From: Escherichia coli
GTDB taxonomy: Bacteria > Pseudomonadota > Gammaproteobacteria > Enterobacterales > Enterobacteriaceae
Reading direction: 5' to 3' (one strand)
Length of the DNA stretch: 64,000 bases
Assembly: GCF_017348835.2 (NCBI RefSeq)
Contig: NZ_CP071375.1
In this document: one piece after another, positions 13,674-43,258 of the stretch
Numbering within the stretch: the stretch's first letter is position 1
How the letters are laid out: every line of letters starts with the position of its first letter
Program-made: the position numbers and the translations under genes
The notes under the pieces: model-generated
Databases searched by the model: none
The model's input: only the letters and a program-made list of their open reading frames with translations
What the model was told of the DNA's origin: nothing

Positions 13674-14396
13674 TTAAGAGACGTGCTGCAAAAATTCCTG
13701 CAAGCGCTGGCTCGGCGGGTTCTTGATCAACACCTGCGGGTCGCCATCTTCCGCAATTCGGCCTTTATCAATGAAGATAAGACGCGAAGCTACTTTCTCG
13801 GCAAAACCGATTTCGTGGGTCACGATCACCATCGTCATCCCTTCTTCAGCCAGATCCTGCATAACCTTCAGCACTTCATGGCGCAGTTCCGGGTCAAGAG
13901 CGGAAGTCGGTTCATCAAACAGCATCATTTTCGGCTTCACCGCCAGCGCACGGGCAATCGCCACACGCTGCTGTTGACCACCAGAAAGTTCGGAAGGGTA
14001 GTGATGTGCACGTTCTGCCAGACCGACTTTCGCCAGCAGCTCACGCGCCAGTTTTTCCGCCTCTTCTTTGTTCGCGCCACGCACGCGTAGCGGGCCAAAC
14101 ATGACGTTTTCCAGCGCCGTCAGATGCGGGAATATGTAAAACTGCTGGAACACCATACCTGCTTCCTGGCGAATCAGGCGCTCGTCAACTTTCGGATCGT
14201 TAACCTTCAGGCCATCGACAATCAGATCGCCGGAGGTGATTTCTTCCAGTTTGTTGATGCAGCGCAGCAGGGTCGATTTACCGGAACCGGACGGCCCGAT
14301 AATCACCACGACTTCGCCCTGAGCAATGTTCAAATCGATATTGTGCAGCACCTGGGTTGGACCAAAATGCTTGGAGACGTTTTTAAATTCAATCAC
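13674..14396 (-). CDS. glnQ: Glutamine ABC transporter ATP-binding protein GlnQ
   Basis: 240-aa ORF with Walker [10 protein letters not shown] and ABC signature LSGGQQQR. Confidence 0.93.
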
Positions 14397-15052
14397 AGGA
14401 TTTTCATCCTTCTTTCCAGACGACGCAGAATAAAGCTCAGCACCAGGGTAATAATCAGATAGAACACCGCCACGGCGCTCCAGATCTCAAGGGCGCGGAA
14501 GTTACCGGCAATAATTTCTTGCCCCTGACGGGTCAGTTCCGCCACGCCGATCACAATAAACAGCGAGGTGTCTTTAATGCTGATGATCCACTGGTTACCC
14601 AGCGGCGGCAGCATACGACGCAGTGCCAGCGGTAAAATGACGTAGCGAATGGTTTCCCAACGTGAAAGACCGAGCGCCAGTCCTGCTTCACGAAAACCTT
14701 TGTGGATAGACAGCACCGCACCACGCGTGATTTCCGCAATGTACGCGCCGGAGTTGATCATGATGGTGACCACCGCCGCAGTAAATGGGTCGATGCGTAA
14801 GTCGTTAAACGCCATCGGCAGGGCGAAATAAATAAACATCACCTGGACGACGATAGGTGTGCCGCGGATCACTTCAATAAAGACCAGCGCGACGTGGTTG
14901 GCTATCCAACCACCGAATGTGCGTGCAAAACCTGCCAGCAATCCGATTACCAGACCGCCAGCCAGACCGAGGACCGAAATCCACAGGGTCATTTTGGCAC
15001 CTTCAATCAGAAGCGGAATGGCAGGCCAGATGGCACTCCAGTCAAACTGCAT
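14393..15052 (-). CDS. glnP: Glutamine ABC transporter permease GlnP
   Basis: 219-aa membrane ORF, 4-bp overlap with glnQ. Confidence 0.93.
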
Positions 15053-15189
15053 ATGTTGTTCCTGTTACCGTGGTGTAAATAATCAAAGTTAGGGTAATTA
15101 ATGGCCCCGGAGCGGGTTTGCGCCTTCACCCTAATCCTCTCCCCAGAGGGGAGAGGGAACTGCCAGTGCGCTTTACAGGCGTAGCATTA

Positions 15190-15951
<762 letters not shown>

Positions 15952-15988
15952 CTATCCACGGGACGATCCCCTGCGTGACATTCACATA

Positions 15989-16006
15989 TATGAAAAAATC
16001 GTGCCA
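15989..16006 (-). promoter_or_regulatory. Sigma-54 (-24/-12) promoter element for glnH (glnHp2)
   Basis: Minus-strand TGGCACGATTTTTTCATA matches GG-N10-(G)C spacing, about 50 bp upstream of glnH start. Confidence 0.6.
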
Positions 16007-16039
16007 GTTTTGCAACTCATTGATTTTTCGAGATGCGGC

Positions 16040-16112
16040 AAAAACGTGATGCACGATTTATAGGGCAATACCCTGAAGATGCACCATTCTGGGGCACCAA
16101 ACTGGTGCGCTA
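16040..16112 (-). promoter_or_regulatory. NtrC enhancer sites upstream of glnHp2
   Basis: Overlapping matches to TGCACCA-N3-TGGTGCA: gcaccattctggggcacc and gcaccaaactggtgcgc. Confidence 0.55.
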
Positions 16113-16267
16113 AAATTGTGCACTCAACACAGTGATTATTTAGCGTAAAACCTGATGAAAAAACAATCTTTATGTAACGATTGTGTGATGATGTGGATAC
16201 AAAAAATTTACTTAACCAGCTGGAGATAGCAGATGGATGCACTAAATAAGTGCGTTGAGGCGGGCTG

Positions 16268-16300
16268 CAAAACAAAACGGCCTCCTGTCAGGAAGCCGCT
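16268..16300 (-). terminator. Candidate terminator downstream of dps
   Basis: Imperfect hairpin cggcctcctg/caggaagccg with T-rich tract on the minus strand. Confidence 0.45.
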
Positions 16301-16339
16301 TTTATCGTGTACTAAAGTTCTGCACCATCAGCGATGGAT

Positions 16340-16987
<648 letters not shown>

Positions 16988-17105
16988 TTAGATATATTGA
17001 TAAGAACAATTCTTATTTATTTGCTCGCCAGGAATTTTCGGAATAAATATGCTTTTGCATAATTCGATATATAAAGACGGTGTAGAGGAAAAGTAGCGAG
17101 AAATT

Positions 17106-17131
17106 CTGCATGGTTATGCATAACCATGCAG
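17106..17131. repeat. Perfect 26-bp palindrome ctgcatggttatgcataaccatgcag just 3' of rhtA
   Basis: Exact reverse-complement symmetry; possible rhtA terminator hairpin or dimeric protein-binding site. Confidence 0.7.
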
Positions 17132-17141
17132 AAATGTAAAT

Positions 17142-18029
17142 TTAATTAATGTCTAATTCTTTTATTTTGCTCTCTTTGCGTACTGTCAGCGTAGAACCCA
17201 TTGAAGCGGCGATAATCGCGCCGAGCGCCAGCAGCTGTATGGGTGTCAGTGTTTCTCCGAGGAAAATCATCCCGGAAACGGCAGCCAGCGCCGGTTCCAT
17301 GCTCATCAGCGTACCAAATGTCCGTGTTGGCAAACGGGTGAGGGCAATCATTTCCAGCGAATAAGGCAGAGCGGTCGAGAGAATAGCGACAGCCAGACCC
17401 AATGGAATAACCGACCAGTGCCAGAGTGCTTCACCAGCCTGAAGCGCTCCAATTGGCACGAAAATTAACGCTGCAATCAACGAACCAATTGCCACCGTCG
17501 CAGGGCCATGTTCCGCTCCTGCGCGTTGCCCACTTAAAATGTAAATAGCCCAACAAGCCCCGGCCCCCAGTGCCAGCGCACAGCCGGTTAAATCGACATG
17601 GGAAACGTCTTGCCCCAGAGGTAGCAGGAACCACAGACCAAGAACCGCCAGCACAACCCAGACGAAATCTACCGGGCGACGAGAAGAGAACAGCGCCACC
17701 GCCAGTGGTCCGGTGAACTCCAGCGCCACCGCAATACCCAGCGGTACTGTCTGAATAGAAAGATAAAAAAGATAATTCATCCCACCCAGCGAAACGCCGT
17801 AAAACAACAGCGGTAACCGTTGCTCTTTGGCAAAGCGCAGTCGCCATGGCTTAAAGAACGCGATGAGGATCAGCGTTCCTAATGCCAGGCGCAGCGCAGT
17901 GACACCCGGTGCGCCCACCAGAGGAAAAAGTGACTTAGCTAACGAGGCTCCACCCTGAATAGACGCCATGGCAACGAGCAATATGACTATTGGTAACCAG
18001 ACCGGCATTTTACGTAATGAACCAGGCAT
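17142..18029 (-). CDS. rhtA: Threonine/homoserine exporter RhtA (DMT/EamA family)
   Basis: ORF 17142..18041 trimmed to MPGSLRKMPVWLPIV start (295 aa). Confidence 0.88.
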   Translation of the reverse strand: MPGSLRKMPVWLPIVILLVAMASIQGGASLAKSLFPLVGAPGVTALRLALGTLILIAFFKPWRLRFAKEQRLPLLFYGVSLGGMNYLFYLSIQTVPLGIAVALEFTGPLAVALFSSRRPVDFVWVVLAVLGLWFLLPLGQDVSHVDLTGCALALGAGACWAIYILSGQRAGAEHGPATVAIGSLIAALIFVPIGALQAGEALWHWSVIPLGLAVAILSTALPYSLEMIALTRLPTRTFGTLMSMEPALAAVSGMIFLGETLTPIQLLALGAIIAASMGSTLTVRKESKIKELDIN

Positions 18030-18381
18030 CCTTTCTCCCACAAATATCTAGACTTAAGTAAAGCGTGGAGTGTACTGGATATACCCAATGCTGGTTGAGC
18101 ATTTGTTGAAAAAATTTTCCCCCGTTTTGACTAAAATGCGCCAGGATTGATGGAATCATTAGTCTGGTGATTAGGAATAATCTGGATGAATGACAGGGAA
18201 AACATGCGTAATACTTACGCAGTTCTCTGAAAAAGTGATTTAAATTTAGATGGATAGCGGTGTATGGAAACGTTCTGTTACATGAAATGGCCCGTTAGAC
18301 ATCACAAATCGCGAAGAGTTTCCCATTAATTTTTGATATATTTAAAACTTAGGACTTATTTGAATCACATTTGAGGTGGTT

Positions 18382-18897
18382 ATGAAAAAAATTGCATGTC
18401 TTTCAGCACTGGCCGCAGTTCTGGCTTTCACCGCAGGTACTTCCGTAGCTGCGACTTCTACCGTAACTGGCGGTTACGCACAGAGCGACGCTCAGGGCCA
18501 AATGAACAAAATGGGCGGTTTCAACCTGAAATACCGCTATGAAGAAGACAACAGCCCGCTGGGTGTGATCGGTTCTTTCACTTACACCGAGAAAAGCCGT
18601 ACTGCAAGCTCTGGTGACTACAACAAAAACCAGTACTACGGCATCACTGCTGGTCCGGCTTACCGCATTAACGACTGGGCAAGCATCTACGGTGTAGTGG
18701 GTGTGGGTTATGGTAAATTCCAGACCACTGAATACCCGACCTACAAACACGACACAAGCGACTACGGTTTCTCCTACGGTGCGGGTCTGCAGTTCAACCC
18801 GATGGAAAACGTTGCTCTGGACTTCTCTTACGAGCAGAGCCGTATTCGTAGCGTTGACGTAGGCACCTGGATTGCCGGTGTTGGTTACCGCTTCTAA
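18382..18897 (+). CDS. ompX: Outer membrane protein OmpX
   Basis: ORF trimmed to MKKIACLSALAAVLAFTAGTSVA signal peptide (171 aa); GAGG RBS. Confidence 0.93.
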   Translation: MKKIACLSALAAVLAFTAGTSVAATSTVTGGYAQSDAQGQMNKMGGFNLKYRYEEDNSPLGVIGSFTYTEKSRTASSGDYNKNQYYGITAGPAYRINDWASIYGVVGVGYGKFQTTEYPTYKHDTSDYGFSYGAGLQFNPMENVALDFSYEQSRIRSVDVGTWIAGVGYRF

Positions 18898-18911
18898 TCA
18901 CTTCGGTGATA

Positions 18912-18947
18912 TAAAAAATCCGCCTCTCGGGGCGGATTTTTTGTTTT
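18912..18947. terminator. Bidirectional rho-independent terminator between ompX and opgE
   Basis: Hairpin aaaaaatccgcc/tctcg/gggcggatttttt with A-run upstream and T-run downstream. Confidence 0.75.
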
Positions 18948-20529
18948 AAGGTTTCGGGTCGAAAATATCGGTTCCGAGATGGTTGTAATCCACCTTCTGT
19001 AACTGGAAGTTGGTGATGTATATCGGCCCGGCTTTCTTCTCAGATATAAACGGGTATTTGATGTTAATTTCCTTCGCTTTAATTCCCGTCCACTGGGAGA
19101 AAAAGCCTAAGAAGTCATTGGCTGAGCGGCGGGCTTTAATCACACGATGCGCTTTATCGTCGCTGGAAATGACCATAAAAGGCACCTGGAAATTTTGCTG
19201 ATATTTATCATCATGGGCAAGGTATTGCACGTCTTTGCCGCGCTCTTTAAAGGCCAGACCGTGGTCAGAAAAGTAAACCAGCGAGAAGCTGCTGCCGCTG
19301 TTGCGTAACTGATCGTACAGCTTGCGCAGTAAATCGTCCGTTTGCGTCATGGTATAGAGATAGCACGACGTTTCTTTCGATTGCACAAAGGTTTCGTATT
19401 TGCCTTGTGTCCGGTCGCAGGCCTGCGGATGTGAGCCCATCAGATGTAGAACAATCAGCTGCGGTTGCGAGTGCTCTTGCGCCAGCACTTGAGCGGTCAT
19501 ATCCAGTAACGCTTCGTCTTTGGTGTTTTTATCTGCTTCAAAATTACCTTCTTTCAGGAAGTACACTTCATCTGCTCGTTTGGCGATGCTGGCGATGGCG
19601 GTATCGTATTCGCCGATTTGACCCTGGTTGGAAAACCACCAGGTCTGGAAGCCCGCGCGATTTGCCAGGGTGACAAAGTTATCCTGAAACTGTGGCTTGC
19701 CATCGATAACGCGATTGAGCGTTAAGCCAAGCGATTTCTGCGTGGAGCCACTGGCGGCAATGTAGTCAGCAAATATCAAACCGTTAACGCTGCTGGCAAA
19801 CGGGGTATTGTCCCAGTGACCGCCAAAGGCACCGAGGGCATCGCGACGCGCGCTTTCACCGATCACCACCACATAGGTCTGATACTTCGGCTTAACGGCA
19901 GTGACCGTCCAGGTATCTTTCATTCCGGAAAGTTTTGCCATCCGTTCTTGCTCTTCAATCACCTCGTTATTATTGACGATGACATCCTTAGCAAAACGAA
20001 ATACCGGATAGCCAGTATCTTTCAGTTTAAATACGCCACCCCAGGCCAGGTTTTGCACGGGAGCAACAAAAAATGTCGCCACACTGAATACCAGACACAG
20101 GCTGTCGAAGGTATTCCAGCGCGCTTTTTCATTCTCTTTTTTTCGCCTGATTGCTATTACGCCGAGCGCAAAAATAAATAAGCCGACCAGGTAGCTGTAC
20201 CACGGAAAAATCGTCAGGATTTCGGTCGACTCTTCCATATTGGTGGAGTGCAATGCCAGCAATGTATTGAAATTAGGCGCGCCGTAGGCCTGAGCAAAAG
20301 GGAAATAACAAGCCGCCACCAGCGAACTGACACCGACCAGAACTTTTTGTACGCGAGGCAATGTTCGCCATAGCAAAAGCAAAATAGCCGTAAACGCAGC
20401 GGTGTAGAGCAAACTGAAGGGATAACCTAAGCCGAGGTTAATTAATAGCGACTGTAAAAAGTAGAACGCAGTCCACGGGCTAAATACCCGGCTACGGGTA
20501 ACAAGCGATTCTTTGAGGGTTAAATTCAT
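18946..20529 (-). CDS. opgE: Phosphoethanolamine transferase OpgE (YbiP)
   Basis: 527-aa ORF, N-terminal transmembrane segments plus sulfatase-like domain. Confidence 0.88.
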   Translation of the reverse strand: MNLTLKESLVTRSRVFSPWTAFYFLQSLLINLGLGYPFSLLYTAAFTAILLLLWRTLPRVQKVLVGVSSLVAACYFPFAQAYGAPNFNTLLALHSTNMEESTEILTIFPWYSYLVGLFIFALGVIAIRRKKENEKARWNTFDSLCLVFSVATFFVAPVQNLAWGGVFKLKDTGYPVFRFAKDVIVNNNEVIEEQERMAKLSGMKDTWTVTAVKPKYQTYVVVIGESARRDALGAFGGHWDNTPFASSVNGLIFADYIAASGSTQKSLGLTLNRVIDGKPQFQDNFVTLANRAGFQTWWFSNQGQIGEYDTAIASIAKRADEVYFLKEGNFEADKNTKDEALLDMTAQVLAQEHSQPQLIVLHLMGSHPQACDRTQGKYETFVQSKETSCYLYTMTQTDDLLRKLYDQLRNSGSSFSLVYFSDHGLAFKERGKDVQYLAHDDKYQQNFQVPFMVISSDDKAHRVIKARRSANDFLGFFSQWTGIKAKEINIKYPFISEKKAGPIYITNFQLQKVDYNHLGTDIFDPKP

Positions 20530-20800
20530 ATGCCACTATCGTAACAAACGCCATGTGCTTACCCTGGCGTCAAGGGTCAATACCTGCAAGAGTGCGTGAA
20601 GAGGGGAAAGGGGTCCGCATCCGCGAGCCGCAATATACGCAGGGCTGCAAGAAGATAGAGCGAGCCGCCGTTCAGGTCAACTACTGACGAACAAATCTTT
20701 TGCGAAGGGGATTGCAAATCCGACAAAAAGTGGGGTTTTTCAGACCAAAACGCGTTATGCCTGCATGAAAGCAGGAGGGAAGCGGCGTACCGCGACGCCG

Positions 20801-20929
20801 CTATTTATCGGAAGGTTTATCTTGCTGCGGTTTGTTGTTGACCATATCGCACAACATAGAGAGCAGCATTAACCGTACTTTAAAGGGAGAATGACTAAAC
20901 ACGCGCATACACCTCTTGAACTCATTCAT
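20801..20929 (-). CDS. mntS: Small protein MntS (42 aa), within the rybA transcript region
   Basis: Minus-strand ORF translates exactly to MNEFKRCMRVFSHSPFKVRLMLLSMLCDMVNNKPQQDKPSDK; too short for the ORF track. Confidence 0.85.
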   Translation of the reverse strand: MNEFKRCMRVFSHSPFKVRLMLLSMLCDMVNNKPQQDKPSDK

Positions 20930-20984
20930 AAGACCTCCTGACTTGCTAATCCCGTCGATCCTTGAGGGATGATTGCATTACATA

Positions 20985-21020
20985 CAGATATAGCACAGGC
21001 TATATTATATAGCTATTGCT
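20985..21020. promoter_or_regulatory. Candidate MntR operator upstream of mntS
   Basis: Palindrome atatagcacaggctatat plus adjacent atatagctat half-site, 60-90 bp upstream of mntS start. Confidence 0.5.
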
Positions 21021-21114
21021 AAAACGTTAATTTTTTGTACCTTCGCAACTCTGGTTTACAATGTGCGCACGAAATGAGAACGCTATGTATGCGTCACCAT
21101 AATGAGGAAGCACA

Positions 21115-21582
21115 ATGAGTCGTCGCGCAGGTACGCCAACAGCAAAAAAAGTGACGCAGTTAGTGAACGTGGAAGAGCACGTTGAAGGGTTCCGCCAGGT
21201 CAGAGAGGCGCATCGACGCGAGCTTATTGATGATTACGTTGAGCTGATTTCTGACTTGATCAGGGAAGTGGGGGAAGCTCGTCAGGTAGACATGGCTGCT
21301 CGTTTGGGAGTTTCGCAACCGACGGTGGCTAAAATGCTTAAGCGACTGGCAACCATGGGGCTGATTGAAATGATCCCCTGGCGAGGCGTGTTTTTAACGG
21401 CAGAAGGAGAGAAGCTGGCGCAGGAAAGCCGCGAGCGACATCAGATAGTCGAAAATTTCTTGTTGGTGTTGGGCGTCAGTCCGGAAATCGCCCGTCGCGA
21501 CGCGGAAGGCATGGAGCACCATGTTAGTGAAGAGACGCTCGACGCTTTTCGTTTGTTTACCCAGAAACACGGTGCCAAATGA
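21115..21582 (+). CDS. mntR: Manganese-responsive regulator MntR (DtxR family)
   Basis: 155-aa ORF; AGGAAG RBS. Confidence 0.92.
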
Positions 21583-22697
21583 GCCTGCCTTTTTTACGCA
21601 CGCTGCAAGGCGATCGTTTTTTTCAGTTATTAATTCTTGTTGGTATCGGATTAAGCTTTTTCGTGCCCTTTGCACCGAAATCCTGGCCTGCTGCTATCGA
21701 CTGGCACACCATCATCACATTAAGCGGCCTGATGCTGCTGACCAAAGGTGTGGAGTTAAGCGGTTATTTTGATGTGCTGGGGCGCAAAATGGTGCGCCGC
21801 TTTGCTACGGAGCGTCGGCTGGCGATGTTTATGGTGCTGGCGGCGGCGCTGCTTTCTACCTTTCTGACCAACGATGTCGCGCTGTTTATTGTTGTTCCGC
21901 TGACTATCACGCTAAAAAGACTGTGTGAGATCCCGGTTAATCGGCTGATTATTTTTGAGGCGCTGGCAGTCAACGCTGGTTCGCTACTGACGCCAATTGG
22001 CAACCCGCAAAATATTCTTATCTGGGGACGTTCTGGTCTTTCGTTTGCCGGATTTATTGCCCAAATGGCACCGCTGGCTGGCGCAATGATGCTGACACTC
22101 CTGCTGTTGTGCTGGTGTTGTTTCCCTGGAAAGGCGCTGCAATACCATACGGGGGTGCAAACACCGGAGTGGAAACCGCGGCTGGTGTGGAGTTGTCTGG
22201 GGCTGTATATCGTTTTTCTGACGGCGCTGGAGTTCAAACACGAGCTGTGGGGACTGGTGATTGTGGCGGCGGGCTTTGCGCTGCTGGCGCGTCGCGTGGT
22301 GTTGAGTGTGGACTGGACGTTGCTGCTGGTGTTTATGGCGATGTTTATCGACGTCCATTTACTGACCCAGCTTCCAGCGTTGCAAGACGTGTTGGGTAAC
22401 GTGAGTCATTTATCTGAACCCGGATTATGGTTAACGGCAATCGGTTTATCGCAGGTGATCAGTAACGTGCCGAGTACCATATTGTTGCTGAACTATGTGC
22501 CGCCGTCTTTATTACTGGCATGGGCGGTAAACGTAGGTGGCTTTGGGTTATTACCCGGATCGCTGGCAAATTTGATTGCGCTACGTATGGCGAACGATCG
22601 CCGCATCTGGTGGCGTTTCCATCTCTATTCAATACCGATGCTGTTGTGGGCGGCGTTGGTGGGATATGTTTTGTTAGTTATACTCCCGGCCAACTAG
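21579..22697 (+). CDS. ybiR: Putative anion permease YbiR
   Basis: 372-aa polytopic membrane ORF, 4-bp overlap with mntR. Confidence 0.88.
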
Positions 22698-22707
22698 GGT
22701 CTGGCAA

Positions 22708-22744
22708 ATAAAAAAGGCGGATTATGAGTCCGCCTTTTGCTTTA
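22708..22744. terminator. Bidirectional terminator between ybiR and ldtB
   Basis: aaaaaaggcgga/ttatgag/tccgccttttgcttt hairpin with A- and T-tracts. Confidence 0.75.
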
Positions 22745-22755
22745 AGTTTTGAAGA

Positions 22756-23676
22756 TTAATTCAGACGAACCGGCATCCCGGAGCGGTTTTTAATCGCTTC
22801 ATCAAGAACAACCTGGTCAACATCTGGCTGACCGGTCACTGTCTGCACGCTCTTCGTCAGGGTAATTGGCACAATTTCCTGACCTTCAAACTGGGCTTCG
22901 GTGGTAGACAGCGGGTTATGGACTTCAATGTAACGGCTGCCGTCTGGCTCGGTGGTCGCTTTTACCGGCTCATCAATAAACTGTACGCGGGTACCGACCG
23001 GTACTTTCTCGAACAGGAATTTGATGTCTTCGTTACGCAGACGCACACAACCATGACTTACACGCAGACCGATACCGAAGTTGGCGTTGGTGCCATGGAT
23101 AGCATACAGGCGACCGATGTAGAGTGCATACAGACCCATCGGGTTATCCGGACCTGCCGGAACCACAGCCGGTAGCGGTTCGCCCGCAGCGCGGTACTCT
23201 GCGTGCATTTTGGCGGTCGGCGTCCAGGTCGGGCCTGCTTTCTTACGCTCAACTTTGGTGGTCCAGTTGATAGGCGTGTCTTTGCCTAACTGACCAATGC
23301 CGATCGGCAGCACGATAACGGTGTTGGTCCCTTTCGGATAGTAATACAGACGCATCTCAGCACTGTTAATGACGATGCCTTCATGAACGGTATCCGGCAG
23401 GATCAGCTGCTGCGGAATGTTCAGTACAGTACCGCCTTTCGGCAGGAAGGTATCCACACCCGGGTTCGCTTCCATCATATTGGAAAGCCCCATCTGGTAC
23501 TCGGCGGCAAAATACTCCAGCGGCTGAGTGTTACCTTCAGGAATGGTGATCACCTGATTCTGACCAACCAGGCGACTCCCGTCGGTTGGCAGAGGATAAG
23601 TTACCGCAGAGGCGGTACTGCAAAAGCCGACAACAGCGAAGGCCGCTGCGAATAATGTTTTCAATTTCATATTCAT
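22756..23676 (-). CDS. ldtB: L,D-transpeptidase LdtB (YbiS)
   Basis: 306-aa ORF with signal peptide and YkuD-type catalytic HG..C region. Confidence 0.9.
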
Positions 23677-23894
23677 GTTAAGCGAGATTTTGTGCCTGGC
23701 AGGCCATTGGGTTGAGAATATTAGAGTATTGGAAGCGCATTATAAGTTCATTCCAGCTCACAGTGAAATCAGATGTGTACGAAATCACATTTTTTGCCTT
23801 TGGCTTGAGTGTAGACCTTAAGCGAGGAGCAGGATCTTCTTTCAGACTTATGGCATAATGCGCGGTTTGTCATATCTCTTTTCAGGATACGCCT

Positions 23895-25487
23895 GTGTTA
23901 GTTTCCAGTAACGTCACCATGCAGTTCGGCAGTAAGCCGTTGTTTGAAAACATTTCCGTCAAATTTGGCGGCGGCAACCGTTACGGCCTGATTGGCGCGA
24001 ACGGTAGTGGTAAATCCACCTTTATGAAGATCCTCGGCGGCGACTTAGAGCCGACGTTGGGTAACGTTTCCCTCGATCCCAACGAGCGCATTGGTAAGCT
24101 GCGTCAGGATCAGTTTGCCTTTGAAGAGTTCACTGTGCTGGATACGGTGATCATGGGGCATAAAGAGTTGTGGGAAGTGAAGCAGGAGCGTGACCGCATC
24201 TATGCTTTGCCGGAAATGAGTGAAGAAGACGGCTATAAAGTGGCCGATCTGGAAGTTAAATACGGCGAAATGGACGGTTACTCTGCGGAAGCTCGCGCCG
24301 GTGAATTGTTGCTTGGCGTGGGAATTCCAGTGGAACAGCACTACGGCCCGATGAGTGAAGTTGCTCCTGGCTGGAAGCTGCGTGTGCTGCTGGCGCAGGC
24401 GCTGTTTGCTGATCCGGATATTCTCCTGCTCGACGAACCGACCAACAACCTCGACATCGACACCATTCGCTGGCTGGAACAGGTGCTGAACGAGCGCGAC
24501 AGCACCATGATCATCATCTCGCACGACCGTCACTTCCTTAACATGGTCTGTACCCACATGGCGGATCTGGATTACGGCGAGCTGCGCGTTTATCCGGGTA
24601 ACTACGATGAGTACATGACGGCGGCGACCCAGGCGCGTGAACGTCTGCTGGCCGATAACGCCAAGAAGAAAGCGCAGATTGCTGAGTTGCAATCTTTCGT
24701 TAGCCGCTTTAGCGCCAACGCCTCGAAATCTCGCCAGGCAACTTCGCGCGCGCGCCAGATTGATAAAATCAAACTGGAAGAGGTGAAAGCCTCCAGCCGT
24801 CAGAACCCGTTCATCCGTTTTGAACAGGATAAGAAACTGTTCCGTAACGCGCTGGAAGTGGAAGGTCTGACCAAAGGGTTTGATAACGGTCCGCTGTTTA
24901 AAAATCTCAACCTGCTGCTGGAAGTGGGTGAAAAACTGGCGGTACTGGGTACCAACGGCGTCGGTAAATCAACGCTGCTGAAAACGCTGGTGGGCGATCT
25001 GCAACCGGACAGCGGCACCGTAAAATGGTCTGAGAACGCGCGCATTGGTTACTATGCTCAGGACCACGAATATGAGTTTGAAAATGATCTGACCGTGTTC
25101 GAATGGATGAGCCAGTGGAAGCAGGAAGGCGATGACGAGCAGGCGGTACGCAGCATTCTCGGTCGTTTGCTGTTCAGCCAGGACGACATCAAAAAGCCAG
25201 CTAAAGTGCTTTCCGGTGGGGAAAAAGGGCGGATGCTGTTTGGTAAGTTAATGATGCAGAAGCCGAACATTCTGATCATGGACGAACCGACCAACCACCT
25301 GGATATGGAATCCATTGAGTCGCTGAACATGGCACTGGAACTGTATCAGGGCACGCTGATCTTTGTTTCACACGACCGTGAGTTCGTAAGCTCCCTGGCG
25401 ACCCGCATTCTGGAAATCACCCCGGAACGCGTGATCGACTTTAGCGGTAATTACGAAGATTACCTGCGTAGTAAAGGGATCGAGTAA
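23895..25487 (+). CDS. ybiT: ABC-F family ATPase YbiT
   Basis: 530-aa ORF with two ABC cassettes (two Walker A, two LSGGE signatures), no membrane domain. Confidence 0.9.
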
Positions 25488-40733: not shown

Positions 40734-40909
40734 TTACGTTTGAATATTGCTTGAAAGAGTAATCACCTCACAGGAAATTATTGCCCTAAGCAAGTGTTGT
40801 AACTTTCTGCTGATTTTGTAGAATCGGGTAATTTGGTTAAAAAGCCGCAGCAAGGGACTGTTTTGCAGCGGCACAGCGTTCAGACAGTTATTTTGTTAAA
40901 TGTATTAAC

Positions 40910-43258
40910 ATGCTGAGTTTATACGAAAAGATAAAGATAAGGCTGATAATTTTATTTTTATTGGCAGCACTGTCATTTATTGGCCTTTTTTTCATCATTA
41001 ACTATCAACTGGTATCGGAACGCGCGGTAAAACGTGCCGATAGCCGCTTTGAACTTATTCAGAAAAACGTTGGCTATTTCTTTAAAGATATTGAACGTTC
41101 GGCCCTGACATTAAAGGACTCACTGTATTTATTAAAAAATACAGAGGAGATTCAACGCGCTGTGATCCTGAAAATGGAAATGATGCCATTTTTAGACTCG
41201 GTGGGACTGGTACTTGATGATAATAAATATTATCTCTTTTCGCGGAGGGCGAACGATAAAATCGTTGTTTATCATCAGGAACAAGTAAATGGACCGCTTG
41301 TCGACGAGTCAGGGCGGGTTATTTTTGCCGATTTTAACCCATCGAAACGACCGTGGTCGGTGGCTTCAGATGACTCTAACAACAGCTGGAATCCGGCCTA
41401 CAATTGCTTTGATCGTCCGGGTAAAAAATGTATCTCTTTTACGCTACGCATCAACGGCAAAGATCACGATTTGTTAGCGGTGGATAAAATTCATGTCGAT
41501 TTAAACTGGCGATATCTGAACGAGTATCTTGATCAAATCAGCGCTAATGATGAAGTTCTATTTTTGAAACAAGGCCATGAGATCATTGCCAAGAATCAAC
41601 TCGCTCGTGAAAAACTGATTATTTATAATAGCGAAGGTAATTATAATATTATTGATTCTGTCGATACTAAATATATCGAAAAAACATCAGCGGTGCCAAA
41701 CAACGCATTATTCGAAATCTATTTTTATTATCCTGCCGGTAATTTATTGAACGCGTCAGATAAACTTTTTTATTTACCGTTTGCTTTCATTATTATCGTA
41801 TTGCTGGTGGTTTATTTAATGACCACTCGTGTGTTCCGTCGGCAATTTTCTGAAATGACCGAGCTGGTTAATACGCTGGCATTTTTGCCCGACTCAACGG
41901 ATCAAATCGAGGCTCTGAAAATTCGCGAAGGCGATGCGAAAGAGATTATCAGCATCAAAAATTCGATCGCGGAAATGAAAGATGCCGAAATTGAACGGTC
42001 AAATAAATTGCTCTCACTGATCTCTTACGATCAGGAAAGCGGTTTTATTAAAAACATGGCGATTATTGAGTCCAACAATAATCAGTATCTGGCTGTGGGG
42101 ATCATCAAACTGTGTGGTCTGGAAGCCGTGGAAGCGGTGTTTGGTGTTGATGAACGCAATAAAATCGTCAGGAAATTGTGTCAGCGAATTGCCGAGAAAT
42201 ATGCGCAATGCTGCGATATCGTGACATTCAATGCCGATCTCTATTTACTTCTGTGTCGGGAAAATGTACAGACATTTACCCGTAAAATAGCGATGGTAAA
42301 CGATTTTGACAGCAGCTTTGGCTACCGCAATCTGCGCATCCATAAGTCTGCCATTTGTGAACCTTTGCAGGGGGAAAACGCCTGGAGTTACGCAGAAAAA
42401 CTGAAACTGGCGATTTCCAGTATCCGTGACCATATGTTCTCCGAGTTTATTTTCTGTGATGACGCGAAACTCAACGAAATAGAAGAGAATATCTGGATTG
42501 CGCGTAATATTCGCCATGCAATGGAAATTGGCGAACTATTCCTCGTCTATCAACCGATCGTTGATATTAACACCCGCGCCATTCTGGGCGCGGAGGCGTT
42601 GTGCCGTTGGGTGTCTGCGGAGCGGGGGATCATTTCACCGCTGAAGTTCATTACCATTGCTGAAGATATCGGGTTTATCAATGAGCTGGGTTATCAGATT
42701 ATTAAAACGGCAATGGGTGAATTCAGACATTTTAGTCAGCGTGCGTCGCTGAAGGATGATTTCTTACTGCATATTAATGTTTCGCCCTGGCAGTTAAACG
42801 AACCGCACTTTCATGAGCGTTTTACCACCATCATGAAAGAAAATGGCCTGAAGGCGAACAGCCTCTGTGTTGAGATCACTGAAACCGTGATCGAGCGAAT
42901 TAATGAACATTTTTATCTCAATATTGAACAACTGCGTAAACAAGGGGTACGGATATCGATTGATGACTTTGGCACCGGTTTGTCAAACCTGAAACGTTTT
43001 TATGAAATTAATCCAGACAGCATAAAGGTGGACTCGCAATTTACCGGCGATATTTTCGGTACTGCGGGAAAAATTGTGCGCATTATTTTCGATCTGGCAC
43101 GCTATAACCGGATCCCGGTGATTGCGGAAGGCGTAGAGAGCGAAGACGTTGCGCGCGAATTAATCAAATTAGGATGTGTTCAGGCTCAGGGGTATCTGTA
43201 CCAGAAACCCATGCCATTCTCCGCCTGGGATAAAAGTGGAAAATTAGTAAAAGAGTAG
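40910..43258 (+). CDS. pdeI: c-di-GMP phosphodiesterase PdeI (YliE), membrane-anchored EAL-domain protein
   Basis: 782-aa ORF; N-terminal TM segment, periplasmic region, C-terminal EAL domain (GAEALCRW). Confidence 0.88.

Follow-up and report, generated by a model that had tools for sequence, protein, structure and literature searches.

The interval between the divergently transcribed genes rhtA and ompX of Escherichia coli is, in our confident view, a shared control region for both genes that contains two ompX promoters and ends at an ompX translation start targeted by the small RNAs (sRNAs) CyaR and MicA. The original prediction had reported a long AT-rich region holding the ompX leader. 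Its observation and its interpretation were correct, and the content of the region is already known: the transcription starts, the translation of the small ORF yliM, the binding of OmpR and the RNA 3′ ends are established by published data on the exact sequence, and the base-pairing and the pattern of conservation were observed directly in this analysis. New here are a single coordinate map that reconciles the scattered published data, the non-coding character of the conservation in yliM and a conserved 19 bp sequence, here named block A. The locus is a textbook example of how control of an outer-membrane protein can be layered, with two promoters, two-component regulators and two envelope-/nutrient-responsive sRNAs.

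We propose that the interval owes its length of about 350 bp and its AT-richness to a dense array of DNA-level control elements together with the leaders of the ompX mRNAs. In this arrangement, rhtA is transcribed leftward from position 18062 with a 33 nt leader. The distal ompX promoter (−10 TAAAAT, start at 18144) would depend on an activator, with a PhoP box as in Salmonella, and gives rise to a 238 nt leader that includes yliM. The proximal ompX promoter, a sigma-70 promoter with an extended −10 and OmpR boxes located inside yliM, starts at 18348 and produces the 34 nt leader that is dominant in rich medium. The ribosome-binding region is common to both ompX mRNAs. CyaR covers its Shine-Dalgarno sequence, MicA pairs over the start codon and the codons that follow, and both would block translation.

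The rhtA-ompX locus and its conservation

Positions are given in the window, which is the whole 64,000 nt stretch of DNA that was analysed. The segment from 17900 to 18500 is a 100% match to E. coli chromosomes and was found in 5422 of 5426 complete genomes. As 18030–18381 corresponds base for base to 850098–850449 in MG1655, any window coordinate is the MG1655 coordinate minus 832068. The rhtA-yliM-ompX locus of MG1655 has the same genes, transcription starts and RNA 3′ ends and differs at no position inside the interval, while 17 single-base differences from the window are found in its flanks (2.5 kb).

Both the list of ORFs and RefSeq place rhtA on the minus strand and ompX on the plus strand. 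With the annotated ATG of rhtA at 18029–18027 and that of ompX at 18382, the gap between them is 18030–18381, or 352 bp. The right-hand edge had been placed exactly, at 18381, but the left-hand edge had been set at 18042, which follows an upstream in-frame GTG and is 12 nt away from the annotated rhtA start. Similarly, the region does lie between rhtA and ompX, but calling it intergenic missed yliM, which is annotated in RefSeq (21 codons). The coordinates of all features are listed in Table 1.

The G+C content is 36.2% in 18042–18381 and 36.9% in 18030–18381, against 51.1% for the whole window, and the AT-richness that had been noted between these diverging genes is therefore real (36–37% versus 51%). 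Segments of 340 nt that are equally AT-rich make up 0.7% of all those in the 64 kb and fall into three clusters, namely the dps-rhtA spacer, the rhtA-ompX gap and a region at 40.8–41.9 kb. The lowest-GC stretch of the window is at 40800–41950, where the G+C content falls to 32% in 340 nt segments. Horizontal acquisition was considered as the cause of the AT-richness and was rejected, because at least 78 enterobacterial genomes keep both the synteny and the gap length. The dps-rhtA spacer, itself AT-rich, contains a perfect 30 bp palindrome (TTCTGCATGGTTATGCATAACCATGCAGAA, 17104–17133) that comes directly after the rhtA stop codon and is followed by a T-rich run on the minus strand; this palindrome is probably the rhtA terminator.

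To describe conservation, 80 ompX loci from Enterobacterales were collected, one genome per species. The alignment comprises 79 sequences, and each position was scored as identity to the E. coli base. The divergent neighbour of ompX is rhtA in 78 of the 80 loci; in the remaining two, the contig is too short for the neighbour to be identified. The gap between the two genes is typically 351–372 bp. In 13 genomes (Citrobacter and an uncultured member of the Enterobacterales), an insertion of 36–60 bp follows position 18045, within the counterpart of the rhtA 5′ leader, and the gap in these Citrobacter genomes is thus 388–412 bp. Across the 79 genomes, identity is concentrated on the control elements (0.82–0.98, with 0.80 at the distal −10), compared with 0.38 at the third codon positions of rhtA. 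Most of the length of the gap, and most of its conservation, is accounted for by DNA-level promoter and regulator sites, not by RNA.

Table 1. Features of the rhtA-ompX control region, in window coordinates; mean identity to the E. coli base is from the 79-sequence alignment
Feature	Position	Strand	Mean identity	Basis or remark
rhtA CDS (threonine/homoserine exporter, 295 aa, MPGSLRK...)	17142–18029	−	0.38 at third codon positions (comparison)	ORF list, RefSeq, translation
rhtA 5′ leader, 33 nt	18030–18062	−		SMRT-Cappable-seq and coordinate mapping
Putative rhtA −10-like hexamer TACACT	18069–18074	−		Sequence reading; 7 nt upstream of mapped start
PhoP box TGGTTGAGCATTTGTTGAA	18092–18110	+	0.82	21–22 nt upstream of distal −10
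Distal ompX promoter (P2), putative −10 TAAAAT	18132–18137	+	0.80	TSS 850212; start is G at 18144
Long ompX leader from P2 (block A, hairpin, yliM, proximal-promoter DNA)	18144–18381	+		Full-length reads
Block A TTAGGAATAATCTGGATGA, 19 bp	18171–18189		0.89	
Hairpin TGCGTAA-TAC-TTACGCA	18205–18221	+		Fold of 18144–18230
yliM (b4736), 21-codon ORF encoding METFCYMKWPVRHHKSRRVSH	18264–18329	+	0.78	RefSeq
OmpR-type tandem boxes, X1 GAAACGTTCTGTTACATGAA (18267–18286) and X2 (18287–18306)	18267–18306	+	X1 0.90; X2 0.70	Likeness to Y. pestis
Proximal ompX promoter (P1), putative extended −10 TGaTATATT	18334–18342	+	0.96	Sequence reading, TSS 850416; start at 18348
Short ompX leader from P1, 34 nt	18348–18381	+	0.89	TSS 850416
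Shine-Dalgarno region GAGGUGGUU, CyaR pairing site	18373–18381	+	0.98	Duplex calculation
ompX start and first codons, MicA 5′-end pairing site	18382–18405	+		Duplex calculation
ompX CDS (171 aa)	18382–18897	+		Terminator 3′ end at about 18943

Transcription starts and regulator sites

Transcription starts were taken from the supplementary data of a published SMRT-Cappable-seq study of full-length capped primary transcripts (PMC6131387), with positions transferred from MG1655. The rhtA start is at 850130 on the minus strand, which gives the 33 nt leader (PMC6131387). Two ompX transcripts, 850212 to 851011 and 850416 to 851011, have leaders of 238 nt, containing yliM, and 34 nt, respectively (PMC6131387). 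The ompX leader that had been placed inside the region is thus present there as two leaders with published starts. The full-length reads for the distal and proximal ompX transcripts number 132 and 93 in the first data sheet and 69 and 499 in the second (PMC6131387); the data are from M9 and rich medium, and that the sheets follow this order is an assumption. Older work, as summarised in PMC8862304, had described a pair of promoters for ompX in E. coli: one, of the sigma-70 type, is some 50 bp ahead of the ATG, and the other, 221 bp upstream, was inactive in vitro with sigma-70 alone. The two mapped ompX starts agree with this account, and the proximal one, at 18348, fits the sigma-70 promoter.

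The hexamers TACACT and TAAAAT and the extended −10 TGaTATATT are located 6–7 nt upstream of their respective mapped starts and are conserved; for the first, the plus-strand bases AGTGTA are 80–100% conserved in the 79 genomes. From their sequence and position, TACACT is a candidate promoter element of rhtA and the other two are likely promoter elements of ompX. A simple scan for the sigma-70 consensus returned no promoters in 17900–19000; this counts against the preferred explanation but is to be expected for activator-dependent and extended −10 promoters, and the scan was set aside as uninformative for these types. Also counting against it, other hexamers were predicted in a genomic-SELEX paper, which proposed TTGACT-18-TGGAAT for ompX and a promoter for rhtA that is far from the mapped start. 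The ompX hexamer TTGACT shows no conservation in the 79-genome alignment.

Upstream of the distal −10, the PhoP box is a direct repeat, GTTGA-N6-GTTGA, at 18094–18109. For Salmonella, a study of PhoP promoters that used S1 mapping and DNase footprinting described a PhoP-activated ompX promoter in which CGGTTGAGGGTTCGTTGAA is the box and TAAAAT the −10, with a leader of 237 nt; its PhoP- and low-Mg-dependent transcription was shown by S1 mapping (PMC3335776). Since E. coli carries TGGTTGAGCATTTGTTGAA together with this −10 and a leader of 238 nt, we conclude that the distal ompX promoter is the counterpart of the PhoP-dependent promoter in Salmonella. The direct-repeat box, the −10 and the leader length to within 1 nt are all shared with Salmonella ompX (architecture III), but the spacing from a −35-like TTGAAA to the −10 is 20 nt in E. 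coli and 19 nt as reported for Salmonella. Homology suggests that the distal ompX promoter of E. coli may likewise depend on PhoP, although PhoP control of ompX is established in Salmonella, not in E. coli, and this counts against our preferred explanation.

The two OmpR-type boxes lie in tandem ahead of the proximal promoter. X1 occupies −81 to −62 relative to the P1 start, and X2 contains a conserved TTAGACA. In Y. pestis, the ompX promoter region has been footprinted with OmpR, and a consensus-like site, GAAATTCTTTGTTACATGAA, is located at −82 to −63 (PMC3050692). E. coli X1 is identical to this consensus-like site at 16 of 20 positions. In K-12, a strong OmpR ChIP-exo peak was found at ompX, and in an ompR deletion the level of ompX mRNA was unchanged under the osmotic stress tested (PMC5438342); the latter result counts against the preferred explanation. 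The OmpR class I porin promoters (ompF F1–F3, ompC C1–C3 and Yersinia ompX X1–X2) have tandem 10 bp half-sites, and E. coli ompX shares these, with half-sites (GAAAC... and GTTAC...) that span roughly −81 to −42 relative to the proximal start. Unlike at those promoters, the DNA of the E. coli ompX boxes at the same time encodes a small ORF that is translated.

The rhtA-ompX spacer is also bound by H-NS, according to a genomic-SELEX study. Neither a CRP site (TGTGA-N6-TCACA) nor a marbox was seen when the region was inspected by eye. The suggestion that the region could hold additional regulatory sites has thus been borne out by sites that were already described, namely the PhoP box, the OmpR boxes, the two ompX promoters, the H-NS binding and yliM.

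yliM, block A and the leader RNA

The proximal start lies beyond yliM, so that only the distal (P2) transcript carries this ORF. The YliM protein has been detected by chromosomal SPA tagging and was positive in a ribosome-profiling screen (PMC6001520), and Adams et al. included yliM-ompX among uncharacterised potential upstream ORFs (uORFs) that are followed by a 3′ end at a distance of less than 200 nt (PMC7815308). Over the 79 genomes, codon positions 1, 2 and 3 of yliM are conserved at 0.77, 0.79 and 0.77, compared with 0.70, 0.82 and 0.38 for rhtA. The ATG is retained in 17 of the 79 genomes, and the frame closes after 8, 14, 20, 21, 26 or 36 codons, with 8 codons in E. albertii and E. whittamii; neither the start codon nor the length is constant even among Escherichia species. 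The invariant bases of yliM are those of the OmpR half-sites. As third codon positions are not relaxed and the invariant bases are the OmpR half-sites, we conclude that the conservation of yliM belongs to the promoter DNA and that the ORF is an overlay restricted to certain lineages, with a regulatory role that is at best putative. The conserved bases of yliM act like regulator-binding DNA rather than like coding sequence, which calls for caution with small-protein annotations in promoter regions.

Three rival explanations concern the RNA of the P2 leader. One is that yliM is a regulatory uORF or leader peptide that controls ompX elongation or translation, in the manner of mdtU-mdtJI or mgtL-mgtA. 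Like uORFs of the mdtU-mdtJI type, yliM is a translated short ORF in a long leader, separated from the ompX ATG by 52 nt and followed by an RNA 3′ end, and its place in the published list of potential uORFs speaks for such a role. Unlike mdtU-mdtJI, it shows no conservation of peptide or ORF, no Rho dependence and no coupled structure: the equal conservation of its codon positions, the sparse retention of the ATG, the variable lengths (with truncation even within Escherichia) and the coincidence of its conserved bases with the OmpR boxes all point away from a selected peptide, RNAalifold gave no conserved structure that would couple yliM to ompX, and the Rho and intrinsic-terminator scores are not significant. 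A regulatory uORF is therefore decidedly unlikely in our estimation. The long leader might instead be a conserved structured cis-regulatory RNA, such as a riboswitch, a thermometer or a protein-binding leader, as the leader is long, a weak RNA thermometer has been reported in the 43 nt ompX leader of Yersinia and a GGA is found in the loop of a small hairpin in block A. However, an Rfam scan of 14000–24000 (E ≤ 1) returned no matches in the interval, RNAalifold of the long leader from 26 genera gave an energy of −3.07 kcal/mol and 0 compensatory pairs, the stem in block A bears substitutions that are not compensated, and in E. coli neither the whole 238 nt leader (z = −0.51) nor the short leader (z = +0.73) folds better than its shuffles. 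This explanation is already largely refuted, and we regard it as extremely improbable. The first 60–85 nt of the distal transcript (18144 to about 18205–18227) could also be a product in its own right, either an attenuated leader or a functional small RNA derived from the 5′ UTR. Term-seq 3′ ends at 850273, 850293 and 850295 (window 18205, 18225 and 18227) were recorded across three growth conditions, the first 87 nt of the E. coli transcript (18144–18230) fold into three hairpins with z = −3.44, and in E. albertii the last stem is preserved because both of its strands have changed together (TGCATAA/TTATGCA). Against this, the sole end that was scored (850293, LB 0.4) has an intrinsic-terminator score of 1.24, with a threshold of 3, and no Rho dependence, and read counts are low for the Term-seq dataset. 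In addition, the hairpin at 18205–18221 is confined to Escherichia and most of the segment is not conserved outside that genus (0.45–0.53), RNAalifold found no shared structure, and full-length distal transcripts reach the ompX terminator. A separate functional product is thus very improbable.

Observations that touch on RNA in and around the locus include the Term-seq ends themselves, which imply fragments of the distal ompX transcript of 60–85 nt. An 11 bp long-range helix (18235–18245 with 18358–18368) in the minimum free energy fold of E. coli was dropped, as it is not conserved in other genera. At 22710–22773 on the minus strand, STnc40, an sRNA of Salmonella, gave an Rfam match below the threshold (31.7 bits against a gathering score of 45; E = 0.022). 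Coordinate transfer from MG1655 places RybA, an sRNA, and mntS, which encodes a small protein, at 20657–20996 on the minus strand, downstream of opgE, and this region was matched by no Rfam family in the scan of 14000–24000.

The remaining alternative concerns block A (also written as TTARGAATWATCYGGATGA), which is at a fixed distance from the ompX ATG. A literature search found no published function for block A, and it is the most conserved element of that kind in the gap. Its core, RGA-N4-TCY, is a pseudo-palindrome that resembles the RcsB box and is present in 79 of 79 genomes. Block A could be an RcsB-type site (for a regulator of the NarL/LuxR family) that activates a third, unmapped rightward promoter starting near 18222 or blocks elongation from P2. 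When compared with the RcsB box TN(G/A)GAN4TC(T/C)NA, it matches seven of the eight specified positions in 75 of the 79 genomes and all eight in two, and the specified positions that may vary do so solely as G/A and T/C, as they do in the consensus. Furthermore, in 35 of the 79 genomes a strong −10-like hexamer (at least 5/6 to TATAAT) follows the core at a distance of exactly 36 bp, and no other hexamer offset occurs in eight or more genomes; the centre of the box would then be near −43.5. On the other side, the last base of the consensus is G, not A, in most genomes, and a 7/8 match is expected by chance about 0.25 times per 352 bp gap (extrapolated from 2.15 exact matches per 64 kb). The hexamer in E. 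coli is weaker, TAATAC, and lacks the key final T, SMRT-Cappable-seq reports no start near 18222, and the literature search found no link of RcsB to ompX transcription. A fuller version would have block A serve a third, stress-induced yliM-ompX promoter near 18222 that many Enterobacteriaceae have kept intact but that has decayed in E. coli, in which this DNA would instead form the hairpin where short distal transcripts end. We consider an RcsB-type site unlikely, and this fuller version no less so. The sole exact match to the RcsB box in the window is at 41366–41379. The first bases of the proximal transcript (TTAGGACTTATTTGAATCA, 18349–18367) form a loose direct repeat of block A, with about 15 of 19 positions alike by eye.

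sRNA pairing at the ompX translation start

Pairing was calculated with the MG1655 sequences of CyaR and MicA, using windowed and seed-restricted duplex calculations and 1000 dinucleotide shuffles. Nucleotides 40–48 of CyaR form nine consecutive Watson-Crick pairs with the Shine-Dalgarno region, and the duplex has an energy of −16.2 kcal/mol (z = −1.95; 50 of 1000 shuffles as good). This is only modestly better than the shuffles, because the seed is an anti-Shine-Dalgarno sequence, and counts against the preferred explanation. For MicA, nucleotides 1–24 pair with the ompX start and first codons at −20.5 kcal/mol (z = −4.4), and one of 1000 shuffles was as good. The sRNA target sequences TTTGAGGTGG and ATGAAAAAAATTGCATGTC show little or no variation across the 26 to 79 genomes compared. 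Duplexes of whole CyaR or MicA molecules with a 297 nt leader were also computed and set aside, as they produced meaningless long loops and were no better than shuffles.

The primary papers on CyaR and MicA acting at ompX are reportedly those of Papenfort 2008, Johansen 2008, De Lay and Gottesman 2009 and Gogol 2011. Published accounts present both CyaR-ompX and MicA-ompX as cases of Hfq-dependent sRNA repression, and the pairing found here, by the anti-Shine-Dalgarno seed of CyaR and the 5′ end of MicA, is of the same form. The statement that the ompX leader is a target of Hfq-dependent sRNAs is thus correct. About 33 nt are involved in the pairing. Of the interval itself, the sites cover no more than the final 9 nt, from which they extend into the ompX CDS, where the other 24 nt fall outside the region that had been reported. 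The original prediction had named a short ompX 5′ UTR and a lack of sRNA pairing as what would speak against it; the 34 nt UTR is indeed dominant in rich medium, but the pairing is present.

Two Term-seq RNA 3′ ends, at 850455 and 850459 (window 18387 and 18391), lie within the sRNA pairing site. They resemble the ends of the sRNA-associated 5′ fragments that Adams et al. describe for other targets (PMC7815308).
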